From assembly GCA_046116545.1 (NCBI GenBank), contig CP175956.1:577734-641733 (forward strand): a stretch of DNA of 64,000 bases. Direction: 5' to 3'. Shown here piece by piece: positions 1 to 12,406 of this stretch. Source of the DNA: Candidatus Moraniibacteriota bacterium. Lineage in GTDB: Bacteria; Patescibacteriota; Minisyncoccia; Moranbacterales; GCA-2747515. The notes beneath the pieces are model-generated. The model had not been told where the DNA came from. It did not search any database and was given only the letters and a program-made list of their open reading frames with translations. The number at the start of each line of letters is the position of its first letter. The first letter of the stretch is position 1. The position numbers and the translations under genes are program-made.

Positions 1-507
1 CTTATTCTTTTTGCTATAATAATTGGGGGATTTTTTGTATTTTATGAAAAAAATAATTTAAATGATGGAATAGTAGTAGAAGCAGATAACGTGCCGTATC
101 AGGAATATAATAACAAATCACAAATAGCAGATATAAACAAAAGTAATACAAATATTTTAACAATAAATGAATCAGAAGAAATAATAAAATCATTTTTTCT
201 TTTTTTAGAAGAGCAAAATGGACTTCACGGTGATCCAGAATATTATAAAAACCTAGACTTATATATAGATGTTGATAAAAAAACAGATGATAATCTTAAA
301 GGAATGATTAAAATTAGTAACGTTGAACGACATAGTACCCCGTATTTTTTGGCTACAAAAATTGATGATGAATGGAAGTTTATTTTTCAAGGACAAGATA
401 TGCCAAGTTGTGATTTAGTGGATAAATATAACATTCCAACAAAATTATTTTGGCCAAATACAGATAATGCTTGTTTTATAACAAAAACAGAAGTTAGAAG
501 ACATTAA
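1..507 (+). CDS. 5-prime-truncated CDS; membrane-anchored hypothetical protein (ORF-track start 91 is an internal GTG)
   Basis: The frame of ORF 91..507 stays open back to position 1 and encodes a hydrophobic helix (LILFAIIIGGFFVFY) ahead of the soluble domain. No recognisable family. Confidence 0.4.
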   Translation, partial: LILFAIIIGGFFVFYEKNNLNDGIVVEADNVPYQEYNNKSQIADINKSNTNILTINESEEIIKSFFLFLEEQNGLHGDPEYYKNLDLYIDVDKKTDDNLKGMIKISNVERHSTPYFLATKIDDEWKFIFQGQDMPSCDLVDKYNIPTKLFWPNTDNACFITKTEVRRH

Positions 508-611
508 AGGGGGTGTTTTTATGAGTTAGTGAGATGAAATAAAAGCTTTTAGAGTAGATGTTTCACCACAAAAAGTTCGAACGTCATTACCTACTCGGCT
601 CATCGATAAAA

Positions 612-635
612 AGCCCCATTTAATGGGGCTTTTTG
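612..635 (+). terminator. Rho-independent terminator hairpin inside repeat A1 (agcccca-ttta-tggggct + T-run)
   Basis: Perfect 7-bp GC-rich stem followed by TTTTT. Also reads as a hairpin on the minus strand. Confidence 0.7.
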
Positions 636-675
636 AGTACCCACTATGACAGGATCGAACTATTTTGAATTTTGA

Positions 676-704
676 TTGACTTTTTGTATATTTTATGCTA
701 ATAT
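676..704 (+). promoter_or_regulatory. Sigma70-like promoter TTGACT-17nt-TAATAT driving helicase gene 770..3013
   Basis: -35 TTGACT (676-681), 17-nt spacer, -10 TAATAT (699-704). A GGAGG RBS lies at ~759 ahead of ATG 770. Confidence 0.65.
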
Positions 705-769
705 TTAACGTTAGTATTTTTAACAAAAGAATATAAATTTTTCAAGAATTTCATATACGGAGGAGTAAA

Positions 770-3013
770 ATGATTGAATTATATCCAGAATATCAGGCAC
801 CAGCCTTTAAAAAGCTGGTTAAGCATTTTGTAAAGAATGTAGTTGGTCTTATGGTTATGGCAACAGGTCTAGGAAAGACAATTGTTGCTGCATTTTGGGC
901 TAAACGTGAATACAAAAAAGGTCGAAAGGGACTTTTCTTGTGTCACGATACAGGCATTCTTGATCAAGCAATGGATGAGTTTCAAAAAGTATTTGGGAGA
1001 AAAGTATCTCTTAAAACATTTTTTGGAAGTGATAAAGATTGGGATGCTGATAAAGGCGATATCGTTTTTGCAACATTTCAAACTTTACGTGAATCAAATC
1101 CATTTTTTAAAGATGAATTTGATTTTATTATTGTTGATGAGTCACATCATGCTCAGGCAGATACGTACAAAAAAGTGATTGAATATTTCAATCCAAAAAA
1201 ACTCTTAGGTATTACTGCTACTCCCAATAGGGAAGATGAACAGGATATTAGAGAGATATTTGGTGATGAAGTTGTAAACATCCCTTTGGAAGAAGCAATG
1301 GCTAAAGGGTGGTTGTCACAAGTTGAATATCACATTCTCAATGACAATTTAAGTCATTGGAAACTTAAAAAGATTGTTAAAGAGGTGCTTGAAGAGGGAA
1401 GAAGAATCTCTCGGAAACAACTTAATGAAACAATTTTTGTTAAAGCTCGTGATGAAGTAACTGCTCAGACGATTCAGGAATATGCAATTGGTAACAAAAA
1501 GGCGATAATCTTTTGCGAGAGTATCCCTCACGCAGATAACTTTCAAAAGTTTTTACCAAATGCACAAGTGTATCATTCAGAGAAATCAGAAAAGTACAAT
1601 CATAAAGTACTTCAAGATTTCAGAGAAGGTAATATCCAATATATCCTTACAATCAATAAGATGAATGAGGGTATTCATGTTTCTGATGCTGAGATTATCG
1701 TATTTCTTAGATGTACAGATTCAAAAACAATATTTTTTCAACAATTGGGCAGAGGATTAGAGAAACCTTTGAACAAGAAAAAAGTTATCGTTTTAGACTT
1801 TGTCGCAAATTGCGATAGAGTTGCAATGATTAAGGAGTTTTCACGAGAGATTAAGAAACGTGCAGGAAACAACTTTGAACTTACGAAGGATGTCCTTCAC
1901 GTTACTGGTAAAGCTTTTGATTTCATCTTTAATGATGAGCAAATTGATATTTTGGAGGTGATAAGAAAGATAACGACCAAAATTTATGTTTCAGATATTC
2001 CGCACTTACTTGCTGAGTATTCACTAAAGAATGATTTACTAGCAGATCAAGTGATTGCTGGTACGAATAAAAAACTTTGGTGGGTATGCTCTGCGTGTAA
2101 GTATGAATGGCAAGCACCTGGGAATAACCGTGTTACAGGAATCGGTTGCCCAGCATGTTCTGGTAGAGTTGCTACCAGAACCAATAATATTACCGTTACT
2201 CATCCTGAACTTACAAAAGAATATTCATCAGAGAATGAGTTGCTTGCGGATCAAATAAAATCTGGATCAAGTAAGAAGGTTTCGTGGATTTGTTCGAAAT
2301 GTGAACATGAATGGCAAGCAGTAGTGAATAGTCGAACTAGTGGCTGTGGTTGCCCATCTTGTAGAGGGATGGTTGTTACAAAAGCAAACAATCTTGCAGT
2401 TACCCATCCTGATCTTGCAAAGGAATATTCACCAAAAAATAAGTTACCAGCAAATCAGGTAATTGCTGGTACTGGTAAAAAGCTTTGGTGGATTTGTTCG
2501 AAATGCGAACATGAATGGCAGACAACAGGAGATAGTCGTAGTAAGCAGGGAACAGGTTGTTTAGCGTGTTTAAGAAGAATAGCTACAAAAGCAAACAATC
2601 TTGCAGTTACACATCCTGATCTTGCAAAGGAGTATTCATCAAAAAATAAATCATCAGCTGATCATGTAATTTCTGGATCACACGCAAAGCTTTGGTGGAT
2701 TTGTTCGAAATGTGAACATGAATGGCAAGCACCCGTAAGGAGACGTGCGGGAGGATCTGGTTGTCCTGCTTGTGCTAATCAAGTTGTAACAGATAAAAAC
2801 AATCTTACGGTCACCCATCCTAATCTTGCAAAGGAATATTCACCAAAAAATAAGTTACCAGCAAATCAGGTAATTGCTGGCACTGGTAAAAAGCTTTGGT
2901 GGATTTGTTCGAAATGCGAACATGAATGGCAAGCGACTGGAGCAAATCGAAGAACTGGTAGAGGATGTCCAGAATGTAAACGATGCAATAGCAGAAAAAA
3001 GAAGAAATCTTGA
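770..3013 (+). CDS. SF2 DEAD/DEAH-type helicase (type III restriction res-subunit-like ATPase core) with 5 C-terminal tandem zinc-ribbon-like repeats
   Basis: Walker A MATGLGKTIVAAF, DExH IIVDESHH, motif III GITATP and motif VI QQLGRGLE. The C-terminus carries 5 x ~68-aa units W-[WI]-C-S-x-C-E/K-H/Y-E-W-Q ... G-C-P-x-C. Confidence 0.75.
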   Translation: MIELYPEYQAPAFKKLVKHFVKNVVGLMVMATGLGKTIVAAFWAKREYKKGRKGLFLCHDTGILDQAMDEFQKVFGRKVSLKTFFGSDKDWDADKGDIVFATFQTLRESNPFFKDEFDFIIVDESHHAQADTYKKVIEYFNPKKLLGITATPNREDEQDIREIFGDEVVNIPLEEAMAKGWLSQVEYHILNDNLSHWKLKKIVKEVLEEGRRISRKQLNETIFVKARDEVTAQTIQEYAIGNKKAIIFCESIPHADNFQKFLPNAQVYHSEKSEKYNHKVLQDFREGNIQYILTINKMNEGIHVSDAEIIVFLRCTDSKTIFFQQLGRGLEKPLNKKKVIVLDFVANCDRVAMIKEFSREIKKRAGNNFELTKDVLHVTGKAFDFIFNDEQIDILEVIRKITTKIYVSDIPHLLAEYSLKNDLLADQVIAGTNKKLWWVCSACKYEWQAPGNNRVTGIGCPACSGRVATRTNNITVTHPELTKEYSSENELLADQIKSGSSKKVSWICSKCEHEWQAVVNSRTSGCGCPSCRGMVVTKANNLAVTHPDLAKEYSPKNKLPANQVIAGTGKKLWWICSKCEHEWQTTGDSRSKQGTGCLACLRRIATKANNLAVTHPDLAKEYSSKNKSSADHVISGSHAKLWWICSKCEHEWQAPVRRRAGGSGCPACANQVVTDKNNLTVTHPNLAKEYSPKNKLPANQVIAGTGKKLWWICSKCEHEWQATGANRRTGRGCPECKRCNSRKKKKS
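1990..3000 (+). repeat. In-frame tandem repeat array, 5 copies of ~204-207 bp (zinc-ribbon-like module) inside helicase 1
   Basis: THP[DE]LAKEYS...KLWWICSKCEHEWQ...GCPAC repeated. Copies starting ~2405 and ~2816 are almost identical at the DNA level. Confidence 0.85.
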
Positions 3014-3030
3014 AAAGGAGGAACATAAAG

Positions 3031-3068
3031 CCTCACCAATCATAACAATGATTGGTGAGGTTTTTTTT
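3031..3068 (+). terminator. Rho-independent terminator after helicase 1 (cctcaccaat ... attggtgagg + T8)
   Basis: 10-bp perfect stem followed by TTTTTTTT. Preceded by the conserved 3-prime flank AAGGAGGAACATAAA that is also found after helicase 2. Confidence 0.8.
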
Positions 3069-3074
3069 ATTATA

Positions 3075-3230
3075 TTTTAAGTGATTTTGTAGCAATAATG
3101 TAAGCTTTTAGCGAAGAATGAGCAATGCAAAAAGTTCGAACGTCATTACCTACTCGGCTCATCGATAAAGAGCTCCATTTAATGGAGTTTTTGTATGTTC
3201 CGCTATGGTATGGTTGAACTTTGAATTTGA
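3075..3230 (+). repeat. Family-A intergenic repeat, copy A2
   Basis: ...gtaagcttttagcgaagaatgagcaatgcaaaaaGTTCGAACGtcattacctactcggctcatcgataaagagctccatttaatggag...tggttgaactttgaatttgatcac. The internal hairpin is degenerate (agctccattt/aatggagtt). Confidence 0.8.
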
Positions 3231-3611
3231 TCACATTTTTAAATCAGTTGGTTTTACGTTGCAGTTTCTTTTTTTGTAATCTTTTATTAGTTGGGAGATG
3301 TGTTTTTTCATTTTTTTTAAAGTGATAATTTTTTCTTCAATGTCTTCTAAGTTGTTTTCTAGATAAGGCAGTAAGGATTGATGCTTGCACTTTGATGTAT
3401 TTAATTGTGTTGCCATTTCTTTTATCTCATTTAGAGAAAACCCGATTTTTTTTGCTTTCTTAATAAATAAGATAGCCTCTACATCAGCAGTGGAATAAAT
3501 TTTATAATTATTTGTACTATTTATAGTAGGCTTAACTAAATCGAGGTCGTTGTAGTGGCGAAGAGCGTCTTTGGTTATGTTCGTTTTTTGGAGCAAATCT
3601 TTTGTATACAT
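3231..3611 (-). CDS. MerR-family transcriptional regulator (CueR-like)
   Basis: N-terminal MerR HTH (MYTKDLLQKTNITKDALRHYNDLDLVKP...) with a coiled-coil C-terminus. Divergent from a MerR-type promoter with a 19-20 bp spacer. Confidence 0.8.
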   Translation of the reverse strand: MYTKDLLQKTNITKDALRHYNDLDLVKPTINSTNNYKIYSTADVEAILFIKKAKKIGFSLNEIKEMATQLNTSKCKHQSLLPYLENNLEDIEEKIITLKKMKKHISQLIKDYKKRNCNVKPTDLKM

Positions 3612-3617
3612 AAATAC

Positions 3618-3649
3618 TTGACAGTGGGGTTAACCCCATGGTTTATAAT
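3618..3649 (+). promoter_or_regulatory. MerR-type promoter/operator: TTGACA - 19/20-bp spacer containing palindrome TGGGGTTAACCCCA - TATAAT
   Basis: -35 TTGACA 3618-3623 and -10 TATAAT 3644-3649. The over-long spacer with a perfect dyad is the hallmark of MerR/CueR-activated promoters. It sits between the divergent merR-like gene and the HMA/copA genes. Confidence 0.8.
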
Positions 3650-3678
3650 GAAGTTAGTTTAGCATAATTATAAATAAT

Positions 3679-5049
3679 ATGACAGCAAAAAAGAATAAGT
3701 CACAAGAAAGAAAATTTTATATTAGTGGAATGCATTGTGCTTCTTGTAAAGGAATTGTAGAAGATCGTCTTCAAGAACAAAAAGAAGTACAAAGTGCAGA
3801 TGTTGATTTGAAAAAGGGAACAGTTGAAATTGTGTTTGAAAGTAGAGTATTAGAAGTAGATGAAATTACAAAAAAGTTTGAGGATGTAGGGTATTTTTTT
3901 TCAGAGCAACCTTTTAAGAAAAAAGCATATAAAAAGGTTGGGTTGGTCTTGCTTGTGGCTTTGATGGTAAGCTTTGTATTGATACAAAATGAACAGTTCA
4001 TGTTGTTTAGTGGAACAAATGTTGATGAAAATTCATCATTGATGGCATTTGTTGTGTTGGGGATAGTGGCTAGTTTATCTAGTTGTGTAGCCTTGGTGGG
4101 AGGAATCTTATTAGCTATGACAAAAAGTTGGACAAAGACAGTAGGCAAAGAAGCTTCACTTTCAAAAAAAATGGAACCACATATGAAATTTCATATTGGA
4201 AGGTTGGTGGCTTATTTTATAGGTGGTGGAATTTTGGGCTCTATCGGAAGTTTTATAACATTTGATAATCCAAGTGTGTATGCAGTACTTACTGCTTTAG
4301 TTGCAATTATAATGTTGTTGGTAGGATTGCAAATGTTAGGTGTAAAATGGGTTTTGAGAATGTATGTTTTTGCGTATGACAATACACTGAAAAAAATTCA
4401 TATTAATGATAACGTGAAAAATAAATCACCCTTTATTGCAGGTGCGGCAACATTTTTTATTCCTTGTGGATTTACCTTGATTGCACAAGGAGTGGCATTG
4501 ACTGCGGGCAGTTTTATGTCAGGAGCCGCAATTATGTCAGCATTTGCAATTGGAACATTACCAGTATTAATAGGTGTGAGCTTAGGAGGTGCTACTATGA
4601 TTGGCAAAAAAGGATTTGAAGTAATTTTTAATACTATAATAGGAACGATTATAATAATATTTGCAATTTATATATTAAATGGTCAATTTAATGTTTTGGG
4701 ATTACCTAGCTTAAATGATATTAGCTTTGAAAAAACAGGAGCTGTTGAGCAAATTGAAAATAGTAAAACTAACCAAAAGAATACTCAGGAGTTAAATATT
4801 GTAGCAGATGGTTTTGAATATGTAGTTTTGGGATCAAAAATACTGAAGGCAGGCGTGCCAACAACCATTATTGTGGATAATCAGGGTATTGTGGGATGTG
4901 GTGTTTTTATGGCAGCTAGAGGTTTGTTTGAGGGCATGATTGAATTAAAGCCAGGCATTAATAAAAAAGAATTTATACCAGAGGCGGGAACGTATAAATT
5001 AACATGTACTATGGGAATGGTTGCACCAGTTACAATTATTGTTAAATAA
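3679..5049 (+). CDS. Heavy-metal-associated (HMA) domain fused to a polytopic membrane domain and a C-terminal beta-rich (cupredoxin-like?) domain; copper-handling accessory protein
   Basis: N-terminal GMHCASCKG HMA motif, ~8 predicted TM helices (FFIPCGF segment) and a C-terminal soluble domain with a TCTMGM motif. Immediately upstream of copA. Confidence 0.55.
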   Translation: MTAKKNKSQERKFYISGMHCASCKGIVEDRLQEQKEVQSADVDLKKGTVEIVFESRVLEVDEITKKFEDVGYFFSEQPFKKKAYKKVGLVLLVALMVSFVLIQNEQFMLFSGTNVDENSSLMAFVVLGIVASLSSCVALVGGILLAMTKSWTKTVGKEASLSKKMEPHMKFHIGRLVAYFIGGGILGSIGSFITFDNPSVYAVLTALVAIIMLLVGLQMLGVKWVLRMYVFAYDNTLKKIHINDNVKNKSPFIAGAATFFIPCGFTLIAQGVALTAGSFMSGAAIMSAFAIGTLPVLIGVSLGGATMIGKKGFEVIFNTIIGTIIIIFAIYILNGQFNVLGLPSLNDISFEKTGAVEQIENSKTNQKNTQELNIVADGFEYVVLGSKILKAGVPTTIIVDNQGIVGCGVFMAARGLFEGMIELKPGINKKEFIPEAGTYKLTCTMGMVAPVTIIVK

Positions 5050-5056
5050 TAAAATT

Positions 5057-7345
5057 ATGATTACACAAAAATATTATGTTTCAGGAATGCATTGTGCTTC
5101 TTGTAAGGTGAATATAGAAAATGAGTTAAAGAAAAATGAATTAATTGAGGAAGCTTCCGTGAATTATAGTGCTGAAACAATGCAAGTTACATTTAATGAA
5201 AAAGAATTAAGTGATGGTGATATTCAAAAATTAGTTAGAGGCATTGGTGATTATGATACGCGTCCAGATAATGATGGGGGGCGAAGTAAACATCAGAAAG
5301 AGAAAAATGAAAATTTAAGTAAGATGAAGCGAAATTTAATATATGTATCAATTGCTGCAGCACCTTTTATCATGAGTATGGCATTCATGCTAATAAATGG
5401 AATATTTGATTTAAATATTTTGGGTGGTTTTTCAACAAGGTTAGATAGTATAATGCTTTTTGGAATATCAGTTGTGAGTATAGCTCAAATTGTATTAGCT
5501 GGATTTGTTCTGTTTGTTGGCGGAAGATTATTTTTTGTTAATGCATTTGCAGCGATAAAAAAAGGTTCAAGTAATATGGATACATTGGTAGTGCTAGGTG
5601 CAACTACTGCTTGGATTTATTCTACGATTGTTACGATATTTTTTGCAGGCAGTGAACAGGAGTTTGTTGTGTTTTTTGAGGCATCTGTGTTTATTATATT
5701 TTTTATTTTAGTAGGTAGATATTTTGAAGAAAAAGCTAGGACAGCGACACAAAAAAGTGTGGAAAGTTTATATGCAATACAATCAAAAGTAGCTGTTGTT
5801 TTGCGGGATTTGAAAAAGGTAGAGATTGCAATTAAGAACGTTGTAAAAAAAGACAATGTTGTCGTTATGCCGGGACAAAAAATTCCTGTAGATGGAGTTA
5901 TAATTGAAGGTAAAACAGCAATTGATGAGTCAATGATCTCTGGAGAAGCTTTTCCGGTGGATAAAAAAGAAGGTGATGCTGTCATAGGTGGCACACTTAA
6001 TACAACGGGTTATATTGTTTTTGAAGCAACTAAGGTTGGTAAGGATACAATGCTTTCACAAATTATTAAAATGGTTGAAGAAGCTCAGGGGAGTAGTGTG
6101 CCAATTCAAAAACTTGCAGACAAAATTTCAAGTATTTTTGTACCCATTGTAATAATTATTGCTGTAGGCACATTTATCTTTTGGTATTTTGTTGCGCCAA
6201 ATATGAACTTGATAGAGGCTTCACAAGCATTGCCATTTGCGGTATATGTGACAATTTCTGTTTTGGTCATAGCATGTCCATGTGCGCTTGGACTTGCAAC
6301 GCCAACTGCGATAATTGTATCGGTAGGACATGCAGCCAGAAAGGGAATTTTAATTAAAAATGCACAAATTATTGAAAATGCATTCAAGATTAAAAATATA
6401 GTTTTTGATAAAACAGGAACAATTACGCAAGGTAAACCAGCTGTAACAGATTCTGTTTATTTTGACGATGAAAAAAAATACGCAAATTATGTGTATGCTT
6501 TGGAAAATAAAACAGAGCATCCTGTGGCTAAGGCGATAATAAATTTTTTGGAAGTTAGTGAAAATAATTTAAGTGAAGAAAAGGTTGAGGATTTTCATAA
6601 TTTAGAAGGCGTAGGCGTGAGAGGTATTATTGACGGAGAAAAAGTCATGATGGTGAAAATGAGTTCTGTTAAAGAATATGCAAAACTGACTTTGGAACAA
6701 AAAAATGTTACAAACAGTTTTCTTGAAAAAAAATATACAATATCAGTGTTTATAGTTGGAGATTCAATAAAGGCAATTTTTGCAGTAACAGATCCAATAA
6801 AAGAAACTAGTTACAAGGCAATTAGTGCATTGAAAGAAAAAGGAATTAAAACAACTATGGTAACAGGTGATAATGAGAATATTGCACAGTGGGTTGCTTC
6901 TAGTGTTGGAATAGATAATGTAGTAAGTGATGCAGTGCCGCTAGACAAAGATAGAATCGTGCAAAAAATTAAAAAGGAATCAAAAGAAGGTGAATTAATT
7001 GCAGTTGCGGGTGATGGTGTGAATGATGCACCAGCGCTGGCTAGAGCTGATATTGGAATTGCGATGGGTACAGGTTCAGACGTTGCGATTGAATCAGGAG
7101 ATATTGTAATTGTTAAGGGATCATTGCAAAAGATTGTTGATGCAATAAATTTATCTAAAAAAACAATGCACATAATAAAACAAAATCTTTTTTGGGCGTT
7201 TGGATATAATGTTCTAGCTATTCCGATTGCAATGGGGTTCTTGTATCCATTTTTTGGTGTAGTTTTGTCACCGACTATTGCAAGCGCTGCAATGGCACTT
7301 AGTTCCATAAGCGTTGTTTTAAATAGTTTGCGTTTGAGGCGATAA
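5057..7345 (+). CDS. copA: Copper-translocating P1B-type ATPase
   Basis: N-terminal HMA GMHCASCK, TM CPC motif (ACPCALGLATP), phosphorylation site DKTGTIT and GDGVNDAPAL. The start moves to ATG 5057 (after the upstream stop 5047-5049) rather than ORF-track 5021. Confidence 0.9.
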   Translation: MITQKYYVSGMHCASCKVNIENELKKNELIEEASVNYSAETMQVTFNEKELSDGDIQKLVRGIGDYDTRPDNDGGRSKHQKEKNENLSKMKRNLIYVSIAAAPFIMSMAFMLINGIFDLNILGGFSTRLDSIMLFGISVVSIAQIVLAGFVLFVGGRLFFVNAFAAIKKGSSNMDTLVVLGATTAWIYSTIVTIFFAGSEQEFVVFFEASVFIIFFILVGRYFEEKARTATQKSVESLYAIQSKVAVVLRDLKKVEIAIKNVVKKDNVVVMPGQKIPVDGVIIEGKTAIDESMISGEAFPVDKKEGDAVIGGTLNTTGYIVFEATKVGKDTMLSQIIKMVEEAQGSSVPIQKLADKISSIFVPIVIIIAVGTFIFWYFVAPNMNLIEASQALPFAVYVTISVLVIACPCALGLATPTAIIVSVGHAARKGILIKNAQIIENAFKIKNIVFDKTGTITQGKPAVTDSVYFDDEKKYANYVYALENKTEHPVAKAIINFLEVSENNLSEEKVEDFHNLEGVGVRGIIDGEKVMMVKMSSVKEYAKLTLEQKNVTNSFLEKKYTISVFIVGDSIKAIFAVTDPIKETSYKAISALKEKGIKTTMVTGDNENIAQWVASSVGIDNVVSDAVPLDKDRIVQKIKKESKEGELIAVAGDGVNDAPALARADIGIAMGTGSDVAIESGDIVIVKGSLQKIVDAINLSKKTMHIIKQNLFWAFGYNVLAIPIAMGFLYPFFGVVLSPTIASAAMALSSISVVLNSLRLRR

Positions 7346-7423
7346 ATTTTAAATTATGTAAATTTAAGTTTTTTCTGTTAACAATATTGCATATGTGTTA
7401 ATGACATCATTTACTATTATTTT

Positions 7424-7600
7424 GTAAAACTAAAGGTTTTCAGTGAAGAACTAGTGGTATAAAAAGTTCGAATGTCAGTAACTATTCAGCTCATCGATAA
7501 AAAGCCCCATTTAAGGGGGCTTTTTGAGTACCCACTATGCAAGGATCAAACTATTTTGTATTTCGATTGACTTTTTATGTATTTTATGCTAATATTTAAT
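7424..7600 (+). repeat. Family-A intergenic repeat, copy A3 (full length with outward promoter)
   Basis: ~90% identical to A1 across the GTTCGAAT...terminator hairpin (aagcccca-ttta-agggggct)...GGATCAAACT...TTGACT...TAATAT module. Confidence 0.85.
7567..7595 (+). promoter_or_regulatory. Sigma70-like promoter TTGACT-17nt-TAATAT driving helicase gene 7663..9618
   Basis: Same promoter module as 676-704. Downstream RBS GAAGGAGA at 7651-7658. Confidence 0.65.
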
Positions 7601-7662
7601 GTTTGTTGACTTAATAATTGAAGATAATAAAATACGTTTCTCATAAAAGGGAAGGAGATAAT

Positions 7663-9618
7663 ATGAGTATTTCTAATTTTTGTAAATCTGTTGCAAAACT
7701 TCTTGAAACTCATTTAGAGTTTTCAAAAAGTAGTTTGCGTAGTGTACAGGTAGGCGGTTTTGAAAAGCTTATCAATTTTATCAATTCTGGTAAATTGAGT
7801 GGCTTAGTAAAACATCCTACAGGTGCAGGCAAAACTCGTTTTTTTTGCGAAGTTTTGTCAGCACTTAATATGCCTTCGCTCATTCTTGTACCAAGAACGA
7901 ACCTTGTAGCTGATACAAAGGAATCACTTGTTGGTAACGAGATGAGAGATGTAGAAGGTGTGGGTTATTTGGAAGAAGATATATTTCTTTTGAGTGATGA
8001 ATTTGGAAAAGCAGCCATTGCTTTAAAAAGCATTTTTGATAATATCATTAAAATGCAGGATTTTGGAGGAGTTGTCATCATGTCATATCAGTCGTTTTTG
8101 AGTATTTCAAAGCATGATATGTATACTCTTGATGATTTTATGAAACTCATCAAGGTAGTCATATCTGATGAAGCTCATAGAGGACTTGGAGATGAAACGC
8201 AAGAGGTTATCAAGCAATACAATGATGACATCATTGGAGATGGTGTTGATCGAGTGCATTTGCACATGACAGCAACTCCACAATTGGGTCATAAAAATGT
8301 ATGTGACATATATGATATTGAAGTGATAGATTGGGTACGTGTACAAGATTCTGTTGAAGATGGAATCCTTATCATGCCACAATTTCGTCATTTTGGTACA
8401 GCCACATACAAAACTACTGATGATATTAAATTTTCTGACAAGTTCTTTGAAAGTCTTGCAGAAAGTGAGAAGTTCGTCATGGATAATGGCCAATCTGTAA
8501 CTGAGGCAGCTATAGATGAATACATTATGTTAAAAGAAAAGCATGATGGATATTTACCTGGAGTTGTATTTTGTGGAACTATTGCTCATGCAGAGGCCAC
8601 TAAACAATATTTACTGTCACGAGGACTAAGGGCAATTCGCTCTACAAGTTCTAATAAACAGTATGATTGTGGCGTAAATCCTGACAGAGCAAGAGAGATG
8701 TTTCACAGCGAAGAAATCGATCTTGTAGTTACAGTAAGTAAGGTTGGAGAAGGTTGGGATGTGCCAACACTTCGCTGTGCCATTTGGCTTAGGCCAGTAG
8801 GTTCATCTGCAGTATATCTTCAAGGTACAGGTCGTGTGATGCGAACACTTCTTGATAATACCGTACATGCATTTAAGGATCGTTCAAATACTTATGTGAT
8901 TGAACCACTTTGGGAACTTGTACGTGTAAGTAGTGTAACAGAAGACAAAAAAGAAGATGAACATGAAAAAGAAATCGTAGAGAATGATTTAGCTGATACT
9001 GATTCTGATGCACAAACAACTGTATATCCGTCAAGAAATGGATATGAACATTTTGTTACAGCAGATGAATTTGATGTTGAAGCGCTACGTTCAATTGTTG
9101 GAGGAGATGCGCGTATTCATATGGATATTGATTTTCATAATGATGAGCATCTTCGAATCCTGATTGGTAGTGTAGACAAGCTTATTGTTAAAGGTAAGGG
9201 TGTGAATTTAGTAAAAGTGACTTTCATTAATACTGAACAAGATTGGAAAGTAACAGGTCGTGTTATTGGCAGAGTTTTGTGGAATAACTCAAGTCCAAAA
9301 ATTTATGATGCAGAAAAACTGGCTAAACAGTTATGGCCAGAGGAAGTTGAGAATTTGTTACCAAAGGAAAGATTTAATCCTAAGGATGATAATCACCTTC
9401 GAATACTAATAGGAAATGTAGATAATCTTATTGTTAATGGTAAGGGTGTGAGTTTAGTAAAAGCAACTTTCATTAATGCTGAACGAGGTTGGAAAGTAAC
9501 AGGTGGTGTTATTGGTAATGCTTTGTGGAAAAAGAAAAGTCCAAATATAGCTGATGCAGAAAAACTGGCTAAACAACTTTGGCTTGAAGAGGCTGAGAAG
9601 TTGTTGGACAAAAAATAA
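7663..9618 (+). CDS. SF2 DEAH-type helicase (ResIII-like core) with a C-terminal duplicated ~82-aa domain
   Basis: Walker A HPTGAGKTRF, DEAH VISDEAHR, motif III MTATPQ and motif VI QGTGRVMR. The start is moved to ATG 7663 (strong RBS) from ORF-track 7618. The C-terminus has 2 x (HLRILIG.VD.LIV.GKGV.LVK.TFIN.E..WKVTG.VIG..LW...SP.I.DAEKLAKQLW). Confidence 0.75.
   Translation: MSISNFCKSVAKLLETHLEFSKSSLRSVQVGGFEKLINFINSGKLSGLVKHPTGAGKTRFFCEVLSALNMPSLILVPRTNLVADTKESLVGNEMRDVEGVGYLEEDIFLLSDEFGKAAIALKSIFDNIIKMQDFGGVVIMSYQSFLSISKHDMYTLDDFMKLIKVVISDEAHRGLGDETQEVIKQYNDDIIGDGVDRVHLHMTATPQLGHKNVCDIYDIEVIDWVRVQDSVEDGILIMPQFRHFGTATYKTTDDIKFSDKFFESLAESEKFVMDNGQSVTEAAIDEYIMLKEKHDGYLPGVVFCGTIAHAEATKQYLLSRGLRAIRSTSSNKQYDCGVNPDRAREMFHSEEIDLVVTVSKVGEGWDVPTLRCAIWLRPVGSSAVYLQGTGRVMRTLLDNTVHAFKDRSNTYVIEPLWELVRVSSVTEDKKEDEHEKEIVENDLADTDSDAQTTVYPSRNGYEHFVTADEFDVEALRSIVGGDARIHMDIDFHNDEHLRILIGSVDKLIVKGKGVNLVKVTFINTEQDWKVTGRVIGRVLWNNSSPKIYDAEKLAKQLWPEEVENLLPKERFNPKDDNHLRILIGNVDNLIVNGKGVSLVKATFINAERGWKVTGGVIGNALWKKKSPNIADAEKLAKQLWLEEAEKLLDKK
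9139..9618 (+). repeat. In-frame direct duplication (2 x ~246 bp) forming the C-terminus of helicase 2
   Basis: The protein repeats begin DDEHLRILIGSVDKLIV... and DDNHLRILIGNVDNLIV.... Confidence 0.8.
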
Positions 9619-9671: not shown

Positions 9672-9830
9672 ATATTTTGAGTGATCTTGGAGTAATAATG
9701 TAGGCTTTTAGGGAAGAATGGGCAATACAAAAAGTTCGAACGTCATTACCTAGTCGGCTCATCGATAAACAGCCCCATTAAATGGGGCTTTTTGAGTATC
9801 CACTATGATAGGATCGAACTATTGTGATAG
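9672..9830 (+). repeat. Family-A intergenic repeat, copy A4
   Basis: ...gtaggcttttagggaagaatgggcaatacaaaaaGTTCGAACGtcattacctagtcggctcatcgataaacagccccattaaatggggctttttgagtatccactatgataGGATCGAACTattgtg. Confidence 0.85.
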
Positions 9831-10702: not shown

Positions 10703-10779
10703 GTCCATTAGAGGACAGCAACTAACTAGCGGAATGCTAGTTCTTTAACAAAACTGGCGGAATGCCAAAGGAGAAAGTC
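10703..10779 (+). promoter_or_regulatory. Structured 5-prime leader: three short hairpins, two with identical GGAAU pentaloops (ctagcGGAATgctag; tggcGGAATgcca), ending at the RBS
   Basis: gtgtcc-atta-gaggacagc, aactagc-ggaat-gctagtt and tggc-ggaat-gcca run directly into AAGGAGAAAGTC-ATG. Confidence 0.4.
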
Positions 10780-12178: not shown

Positions 12179-12406
12179 ATGATTTCAGTTGGTAATATTG
12201 AAAGATTTATTGATAATCATCCAGAACTTAATCTCGATAAAGATAAGATTATGAGACAGGCTGATGAATTAGCTCGTCAAGAGGTCTTGTCTGGCGGAGT
12301 AGTTGGAGATTTACTTGGCAATTTGGACGCATTATTTTTTCGTGAATTTCATTTTGACATAGAGCATCTTAAGGTTGCTGCAAAAGATGTAATAAATATG
12401 GAGTAG
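12179..12406 (+). CDS. Hypothetical small protein (75 aa)
   Basis: ORF with RBS-like AAAGGGG upstream. No family recognised. Confidence 0.35.
   Translation: MISVGNIERFIDNHPELNLDKDKIMRQADELARQEVLSGGVVGDLLGNLDALFFREFHFDIEHLKVAAKDVINME

Follow-up and report, generated by a model that had tools for sequence, protein, structure and literature searches.

A predicted SF2 helicase followed by five DUF4379 zinc modules in a Candidatus Moraniibacteriota genome

We examined a 64,000-nucleotide stretch of a Candidatus Moraniibacteriota bacterium genome (contig CP175956.1 of assembly GCA_046116545.1, positions 577,734 to 641,733 of the forward strand), hereafter termed the window, and within it a plus-strand gene at 770–3013 whose 747-aa product joins a helicase motor to a C-terminal array of five DUF4379 units. 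The motor is predicted to be of the superfamily 2 (SF2) DNA-translocase type. The array probably binds nucleic acid, most likely double-stranded DNA (dsDNA), and by doing so may tether or target the motor, judging by analogy with known users of the module. The gene is one more member of a large, uncharacterized family; the finding is real but ordinary.

Results

Array of five zinc modules

The open reading frame (ORF) divides into a helicase core with linker (aa 1–406, 770–1987) and the array. A first-pass annotation, made from the letters alone, had described zinc modules fused to a helicase, had placed them at 1990–3000 and had tentatively named DUF4379 as the family. Profile searches bore this out, with DUF4379 matching five times and ResIII and Helicase_C matching in the same ORF, and the span was right to within a few bases, the units occupying nt 1988–3010. 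The match to Pfam DUF4379 (PF14311, 'Probable Treble clef zinc finger domain') had an E-value of 1.4e-78 and 259.4 bits, against a gathering cut-off of 24.5 bits, in five separately significant stretches.

Unit borders were set by motif and alignment, giving unit lengths of 67–69 aa, all on the plus strand. Unit 1 lies at 1988–2194 (aa 407–475; C440/C443 and C460/C463), unit 2 at 2195–2398 (aa 476–543; C508/C511 and C528/C531) and unit 3, whose second knuckle is CLAC, at 2399–2605 (aa 544–612; C576/C579 and C597/C600). Unit 4, used for the single-unit structure model, is at 2606–2809 (aa 613–680; C645/C648 and C665/C668), and unit 5, with a basic tail RKKKKS, is at 2810–3010 (aa 681–747; C713/C716 and C733/C736). 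Every one of the five carries the signature W-x-C-x-x-C then C-[PL]-x-C, and both Cys pairs are kept in 5/5 units as C-x-x-C, 16–17 residues, C-[P/L]-x-C. Tandem Repeats Finder reported a period of 204 nt with 3.2 copies and a score of 771, and nucleotide identity between unit pairs was 61–80%. A six-frame scan of the 64-kb window with the unit profile found no further DUF4379 units.

Conservation was tallied over 413 units from 99 proteins. The four Cys were kept in 409, 375, 412 and 398 units, W31 in all 413 and R47 (Arg47) in 398, while N14, L6 and E9 were also nearly fixed. The Trp and His residues had been called invariant in the first-pass annotation; this holds for the Trp but not for the His, which is a Tyr in unit 1 (CKYEW) and is present in 279 of the 413 family units. 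The most variable positions (43, 45, 46, 48, 49 and 51) lie around R47 on the short helix. We conclude that the units are Cys4 DUF4379 zinc modules, the four Cys being the predicted zinc ligands.

Fold and relatives of the module

To our knowledge, the DUF4379 family itself is without a tested function. An AlphaFold2 model of unit 4, built from an alignment of 84 units, had a mean predicted local distance difference test score (pLDDT) of 88 and showed two short helices, a beta-hairpin with C-x-x-C at the turn, a short helix and a C-P-x-C loop. In the full-length model (pLDDT 89.6, predicted template modeling score (pTM) 0.58), the five units fold alike, and the unit blocks are mostly at pLDDT 90–96.

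The only good PDB matches of the unit were DUF4379 proteins of the kinetoplastid mitoribosome (mt-SAF33, mS66 and 6yxx chain E2), and sequence search agreed. The best were to mt-SAF33 (7pua_Fd and 6sga_Fd) and to 9hny_Fd, with template modeling (TM) scores of 0.74–0.75 and root-mean-square deviations (rmsd) of 1.3–1.6 Å, and with 30% identity for mt-SAF33. The protein mt-SAF33 contacts h22/h23 of immature rRNA (PMC8784144). In the viral structure library BFVD, the unit matched '(restriction) endonuclease' proteins of giant viruses (Marseillevirus, Port-miou virus, Terrestrivirus and mimivirus R635) at TM 0.68–0.88, and it also matched phage 'treble clef zinc finger' proteins.

Tandem use of the module is found in viruses. 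Lausannevirus has four DUF4379 domains together with a restriction endonuclease domain (PMC5513546). Phage group II intron and homing endonucleases carry three to five domains of ~60 aa, related to CapR, DUF4379 and DUF723, before an EDxHD/Vsr nuclease, and these tandem domains have been interpreted as modular DNA-binding domains (PMC12350094). When we compared the array with phage genomes by tblastn, we found proteins with 4–5 units: mEp021_12 has 5 DUF4379/CapR units followed by T5orf172, both models matching the same units, and MEW1 gp45 has 4 units. The array also matched PHROG endonuclease families 681 and 559. CapR itself, from the PLE satellite of Vibrio cholerae, represses the capsid operon of ICP1 via DNA binding, and changing its two Cys pairs to Ser abolished sequence-specific dsDNA binding (PMC8096241). 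The Pfam CapR homology domain (PF21817) scored 34.4 bits over our whole protein (cut-off 24.2), with no single stretch significant. Many phage and giant-virus endonucleases presumably use the DUF4379 module for targeting.

One further Pfam model, RIG-I_C-RD (PF11648), scored 28.6 bits against a cut-off of 25.6. We rejected an assignment as a RIG-I C-terminal regulatory domain; the match had no significant stretch, and the unit had no corresponding fold match in the PDB.

The motor

Pfam matched aa 7–328 to ResIII (1.6e-35), DEAD, SWI2_SNF2 and Helicase_C (9.5e-11), and motifs I (GLGKT), II (DESHH) and III (TATP) are intact. By PDB sequence search, the motor's nearest solved relatives were SauUSI (7clg, 1.2e-44), the type I R subunit 3h1t, RadD and XPB, with 6jde also among the matches; Foldseek on the full-length model returned the same set (SauUSI, HsdR, RadD and XPB). 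PHROG 16, 'DNA helicase', matched at 3e-68. PADLOC matches to mREase_IV (3.7e-47) and PbeA (6e-29) covered aa 25–351 and were confined to the motor, and the RadD equivalog (NCBIfam NF053632) scored 109.7 bits, below its cut-off of 720. PADLOC, NCBIfam and PHROGs agree on the type of motor, although their matches are restricted to that part of the protein and fall far short of equivalog thresholds. These matches identify it as a predicted SF2 DNA translocase with a SauUSI/HsdR/RadD/XPB-like core. Since its nearest relatives all act on DNA, DNA is favored as the substrate.

The protein begins at the helicase Q motif. Its reading frame is open from nt 737 only, which leaves no space for an N-terminal nuclease domain. 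Pfam, NCBIfam and PADLOC found no nuclease domain (T5orf172/GIY-YIG, EDxHD/Vsr, HNH or restriction-endonuclease-like) in the 747 aa.

A large family with a variable array

For a census of the family, the 120 best database homologs were scored with a profile built from the array units. DUF4379 units were present in 99 of the 120, and in 95 they followed a helicase, numbering 1–9 and most often 4 or 5. Four homologs (P0054, P0076, P0090 and P0093) were arrays of 9–12 units with no helicase. By name, the sources were Patescibacteria, Paceibacterota, Moraniibacteriota and Azambacteria. The first-pass annotation had thought the fusion of a helicase to a repeat array uncommon; these counts do not support that. 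An identical protein can already be found in NCBI/JGI, titled 'MAG: zinc-ribbon domain-containing protein [Candidatus Moraniibacteriota bacterium]', on a 1.29-Mb contig. Our literature search found no paper describing a helicase-DUF4379 fusion.

The remaining 21 homologs were without DUF4379. Nearly all of these had the same core (58–70% identity) with integrase-repeat units (PF14882); P0061, for example, has a core ~70% identical and six such units in place of DUF4379. The C-terminal repeat array is thus an exchangeable module in this helicase family. A scan of GTDB genomes returned, among the matches listed, mostly helicase-only relatives, the array being covered only by two loci (L004 and L005).

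One homolog with two units (P0063) came from an archaeal genome (L091, GCA_021107855.1), where its neighbors were aIF2, eIF-5 and diphthamide-synthesis genes. About 2 kb from it we also noted a phage-type integrase, a DNA methyltransferase and conjugation-type genes (TraC-like and a type IV secretion system pilin).

Sequence comparison thus shows a large helicase-DUF4379 family, mostly in Patescibacteria, whose first and last units are conserved in position and whose interior units have been gained, lost and patched. This family is common in the genome-reduced Patescibacteria, is present in at least one archaeon, and is uncharacterized.

History of the array

Units 3 and 5 had been noted as near-identical in DNA over more than 100 bp, and aligning the five units confirmed it. 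The tract covers the N-terminal half of each unit: copy A, in unit 3, is at 2399–2520, and copy B, in unit 5, is at 2810–2931, both on the plus strand. They match at 119/122 nt, including uninterrupted stretches of 58 and 50 nt; of the three differences, two are synonymous and one gives D/N. Beyond the 122 nt, identity between units 3 and 5 drops to ~45%, and the C-terminal halves of the two units are unrelated. When the comparison is limited to the first 126 nt of each unit, units 3 and 5 agree at 120 positions, and the other pairs among units 2–5 at 97–105.

In five homologous loci, no unit pair exceeded ~81% identity over at least 100 nt; the absence of a comparable pair there indicates that the patch between units 3 and 5 was a local, recent event. 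At the protein level, the units most similar to unit 1 are those that come first in other proteins, and the units most similar to unit 5 are those that come last; this nearness to positional counterparts elsewhere points to an array that is old. Recent duplication of a whole unit was therefore rejected, both by this correspondence and by the collapse of identity past 122 nt. Restriction of near-identity to the N-terminal half of the unit favors gene conversion over whole-unit duplication, and the tract is best explained as a putative gene-conversion patch of ~120 nt. The proposal of very recent duplication through unequal crossing-over thus needs modifying, as only half a unit is shared.

The two tract copies are offset by 411 nt, or 137 codons. 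Because this is a whole number of codons, recombination between them would delete two units in frame, making such a loss possible.

Motif V and VI substitutions

The motor of this copy departs from its family at positions that are otherwise almost invariant. At motif V (1676–1684, plus strand), alignment showed NEGIHVS where the family has NEGIDIP (D303H and P305S); in a 73-member family alignment, the D is present in 71 and the P in 72. Those of the 120 homologs that bear the motif have DP at these two positions in 111 cases and HS in one. At motif VI (1760–1762, plus strand), QQLGRGLE replaces QQLGRGLR, so that the second arginine is lost (R331E, codon GAG). Homologs have R at this position in 107 cases, H in four and E in one, and P0006, which is 81% identical to our protein, has R. 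The combination of H303, S305 and E331 belongs to the present protein alone in the 73-member alignment and among ~112 homologs. Since the second motif VI arginine contacts the gamma-phosphate of ATP in SF2 enzymes, replacement of these near-invariant residues suggests that the ATPase may be impaired, and the motor of the present copy may be weakened or dead.

Expression signals and assembly

The gene has its own predicted signals, all on the plus strand. A consensus scan upstream found a sigma-70-like promoter at 676–704 (TTGACT-17-TAATAT with a TG extension; its function is inferred), and a ribosome-binding site, GGAGGAG, was read at 759–765, 4 nt 5' of the ATG at 770. Fourteen nt past the stop codon begins an intrinsic-terminator-like hairpin of 17 pairs followed by a T run (3027–3064). 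With promoter, ribosome-binding site and terminator all predicted, the helicase-DUF4379 gene reads as a self-contained transcription unit.

Our scan of metagenomes returned three loci: contig SWBY01006766.1 (L084), a 93%-identical fragment covering only 598–1229 of the window, and one distant relative. SWBY01006766.1, an independent contig, is 100% identical to window positions 1–2458 and ends at 2458, inside the unit 3 tract; the sequences of two close relatives, P0006 and P0013, likewise stop within their arrays. The array breaks short-read assemblies, as the end of SWBY01006766.1 illustrates. The count of five units rests on the contig of a metagenome-assembled genome (MAG) and needs read-level confirmation. 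For annotation and assembly, the near-identical intragenic tract is a concrete warning that short-read MAGs can give wrong unit numbers for genes of this kind.

Neighborhood of the gene

Neighbors in the window and at six homologous loci differ and are mostly housekeeping or unannotated genes, with no conserved neighbor in these seven places pointing to a pathway. This lack of conservation suggests that the gene works alone or with unlinked partners.

At 7618–9618, 4.6 kb from the first helicase gene, lies another ResIII/Helicase_C gene, with a product of 666 aa. The C-terminus of this product has two repeats of ~82 aa (nt 9140–9359 and 9386–9605), 82% identical and with no Pfam match. Both helicase genes are bracketed by copies of a structured intergenic element of ~130 nt, found four times on the plus strand (545–665, 3104–3224, 7436–7556 and 9704–9824) and absent from the rest of the 64 kb. 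At the core of the element, GTTCGAACGTCATTACCTACTCGGCTCATCGATAAA precedes a hairpin, AGCCCCATTTAATGGGGCT, in which copy 2 has a compensatory change, and there is an outer pairing of AGTTCGAAC with GATCGAACT. The two upstream copies lead into promoters that are 90% identical (670–711 and 7561–7602). The flanks of the two genes are 83–86% identical, and the helicases themselves are 21% identical. Rfam had no match in the flanks or the element.

Between the helicases lies a copper/heavy-metal module (3231–7345), consisting of a MerR-family regulator (3231–3611, minus strand), an HMA-DsbD_2 fusion protein (3679–5049) and a P-type ATPase with an HMA domain (5021–7345). Two of its HMA-coding segments, 3711–3765 and 5068–5122, are 80% identical in DNA.

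Some homologous loci had features of their own. At L001, the locus of a 59%-identical homolog, a perfect 27-nt direct repeat, CTTGTTGCACAGGTAGGACGGGATTGG, at 7766–7792 and 10744–10770 brackets the helicase and flanking intergenic DNA, and ~1.5 kb downstream (12241–12329) is a tRNA-like 5' sequence with a partial duplicate; together these could be an insertion signature. No flanking direct repeats were found at L002, L003, L089, L090 or L091, and L004 had only a marginal 15-nt match. We did not adopt the idea of a mobile cassette moving via flanking direct repeats, which were seen here and at L001 and were absent from five other loci. At L003, near homolog P0015, two short ORFs are pieces of the RNA polymerase beta subunit (Rpb2_45, 165 aa, and Rpb2_1, 171 aa; 1078–2940 and 6702–7550) with small ORFs between them, and a Bro-N protein is encoded immediately upstream of the helicase; rpoB could be fragmented or invaded there. 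At L090, blocks of 73 nt and 59 nt upstream of the homolog are repeated 781–785 nt apart (8034–8168 and 8815–8953) with 86–99% identity, and the 59-nt block contains a promoter-like TTGACT...TAATAT. Such repetition of promoter modules may be widespread in these genomes.

Discussion

The arrangement that we favor would work as follows. Five independently folded Cys4 modules string behind a motor of the SF2 DNA-translocase type; the modules would bind nucleic acid, most likely dsDNA, additively, and the array would thereby anchor or target the ATP-driven motor on DNA. Parallels for such use of the module would be its position before nuclease domains in phage and giant-virus endonucleases and its role as the DNA-binding domain of CapR. 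Over time, interior units have been gained, lost and patched, the tract in units 3 and 5 being one recent patch.

Several findings weigh against DNA tethering. The CapR (PF21817) match came without any individually significant stretch, and the Cys spacing of CapR, CxxC-24/26-CxC (PMC8096241), differs from the CxxC-16/17-CxxC found here. Solved DUF4379 structures come only from trypanosomatid mitoribosomes and their assembly intermediates, so that RNA or protein binding has precedent. A pTM of 0.58 makes the modeled arrangement of the units, relative to the motor and to each other, unreliable. Finally, R331E, D303H and P305S cast doubt on translocation by the present copy.

That precedent is the starting point for the view that the protein is an RNA-directed helicase, whose zinc modules would bind structured RNA or ribonucleoprotein as do the mitoribosomal DUF4379 proteins or the C-terminal domain of RIG-I-like proteins. 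We consider this unlikely, although mt-SAF33, mS66 and 6yxx_E2 are all mitoribosomal and mt-SAF33 binds immature rRNA, RIG-I_C-RD scored above its Pfam cut-off, and LGP2 and MDA5 were among the Foldseek matches of the full model. Set against this, the RIG-I_C-RD match had no individually significant stretch, the single-unit model matched no C-terminal domain of RIG-I, MDA5 or LGP2 in the PDB, and the LGP2 alignments had an rmsd of ~20 Å. Moreover, the motor's nearest sequence relatives are all DNA enzymes, and outside kinetoplastids the module accompanies DNA nucleases. The module is typical of selfish or defense-type nucleases, which, together with the PADLOC matches and the position of SauUSI as closest solved structure, might instead suggest that the protein belongs to, or is left over from, a restriction or anti-phage system, as a SauUSI-like type IV enzyme whose nuclease has been lost or is encoded elsewhere. 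We hold this to be very unlikely, as the matches are limited to the motor, the protein has neither a nuclease domain nor upstream space for one, and no nuclease or methyltransferase recurs as a neighbor in the window and the six homologous loci. An assignment to a defense system was accordingly set aside, PADLOC being motor-only and no partner recurring at those loci.

Two further explanations concern this copy rather than the family. The gene could be decaying or repurposed, with an inactive motor, so that the protein would be a DNA-binding array only or would be nearing loss; this is compatible with the other readings, and we think it has a small but real chance of being right. R331E and the D303H and P305S pair are unique among ~112 homologs, an 81%-identical relative retains the motif VI consensus, and R to E takes two base changes, making a single sequencing error unlikely. 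Against decay, the ORF is intact, motifs I–III and 20/20 zinc-ligand Cys are kept, and promoter, ribosome-binding site and terminator are present; the effect on the ATPase, too, is a prediction from SF2 enzymes in general. Alternatively, the tract or the five-unit count might be an assembly artifact, a chimera or mis-join across the repeat, as could be suspected from the end of SWBY01006766.1 at 2458 inside the tract and from the ends of P0006 and P0013 within their arrays. This we find improbable: the units are otherwise 61–73% identical and so distinguishable, unit 4 and the differing C-terminal halves of units 3 and 5 fix one consistent order, the frame remains open through the array, and arrays of this length are frequent among family members (21 of the 120 homologs scanned have five units).

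A bolder version of the tethering arrangement can be imagined, in which the array would be a modular, re-writable DNA-recognition code, each 68-aa unit reading a few bp through the variable positions around the Arg, and turnover and patching of units would retarget the motor in Patescibacteria. We regard this version as quite doubtful. If true, it would be a prokaryotic counterpart of C2H2 zinc-finger and TALE arrays, mounted on a translocase or, in viruses, on a nuclease. Should the units prove to read DNA sequence additively, the family would be a compact natural scaffold on which modular recognition could be built.

Comparison with known systems places the gene as follows. At the domain level there is no difference from DUF4379 (PF14311), all five units sharing the signature, the four Cys and the fold of the solved members. 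Kinetoplastid mt-SAF33 and mS66 provide the best solved structural match of the unit (TM 0.75, rmsd ~1.4 Å, 30% identity), but there the module occurs singly or in small number, without a helicase, in ribosomal proteins or assembly factors that contact rRNA. RIG-I-like receptors resemble our protein in general layout, with a Cys4 zinc domain behind an SF2 motor, and in the weak Pfam RIG-I_C-RD score; they differ in having one C-terminal domain where five repeated modules are found here, in the lack of a fold match between the unit and that domain, and in a motor of a different SF2 group.

SauUSI (7clg), an ATP-dependent type IV restriction enzyme, has the closest solved motor, at 26% identity over ~430 aligned columns. 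Yet its chain has 953 residues, compared with 747 in our protein, and the SauUSI motor starts only at about residue 227. SauUSI has in addition an N-terminal phospholipase-D-type nuclease and a C-terminal domain that recognizes modified DNA; both are lacking in our protein, which has the zinc-module array instead. CapR and the phage homing endonucleases (PF21817) share the small Cys4 module, in phages as tandem arrays of 3–5 units, and the homing and restriction endonucleases with DUF4379/CapR arrays likewise have a tandem zinc-module array, of five units in our case. Their partner is a nuclease (T5orf172 or EDxHD/Vsr) or none, whereas here it is a helicase.

Nearest of all are the helicase-DUF4379 proteins of Patescibacteria, annotated as 'zinc-ribbon domain-containing protein' or 'superfamily II DNA or RNA helicase', which have the same architecture at 40–81% identity and whose first and last units correspond by position to ours. 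Particular to the present copy are its count of five units within the family range of 1–9, the fresh tract shared by units 3 and 5, and the unique substitutions in motifs V and VI.

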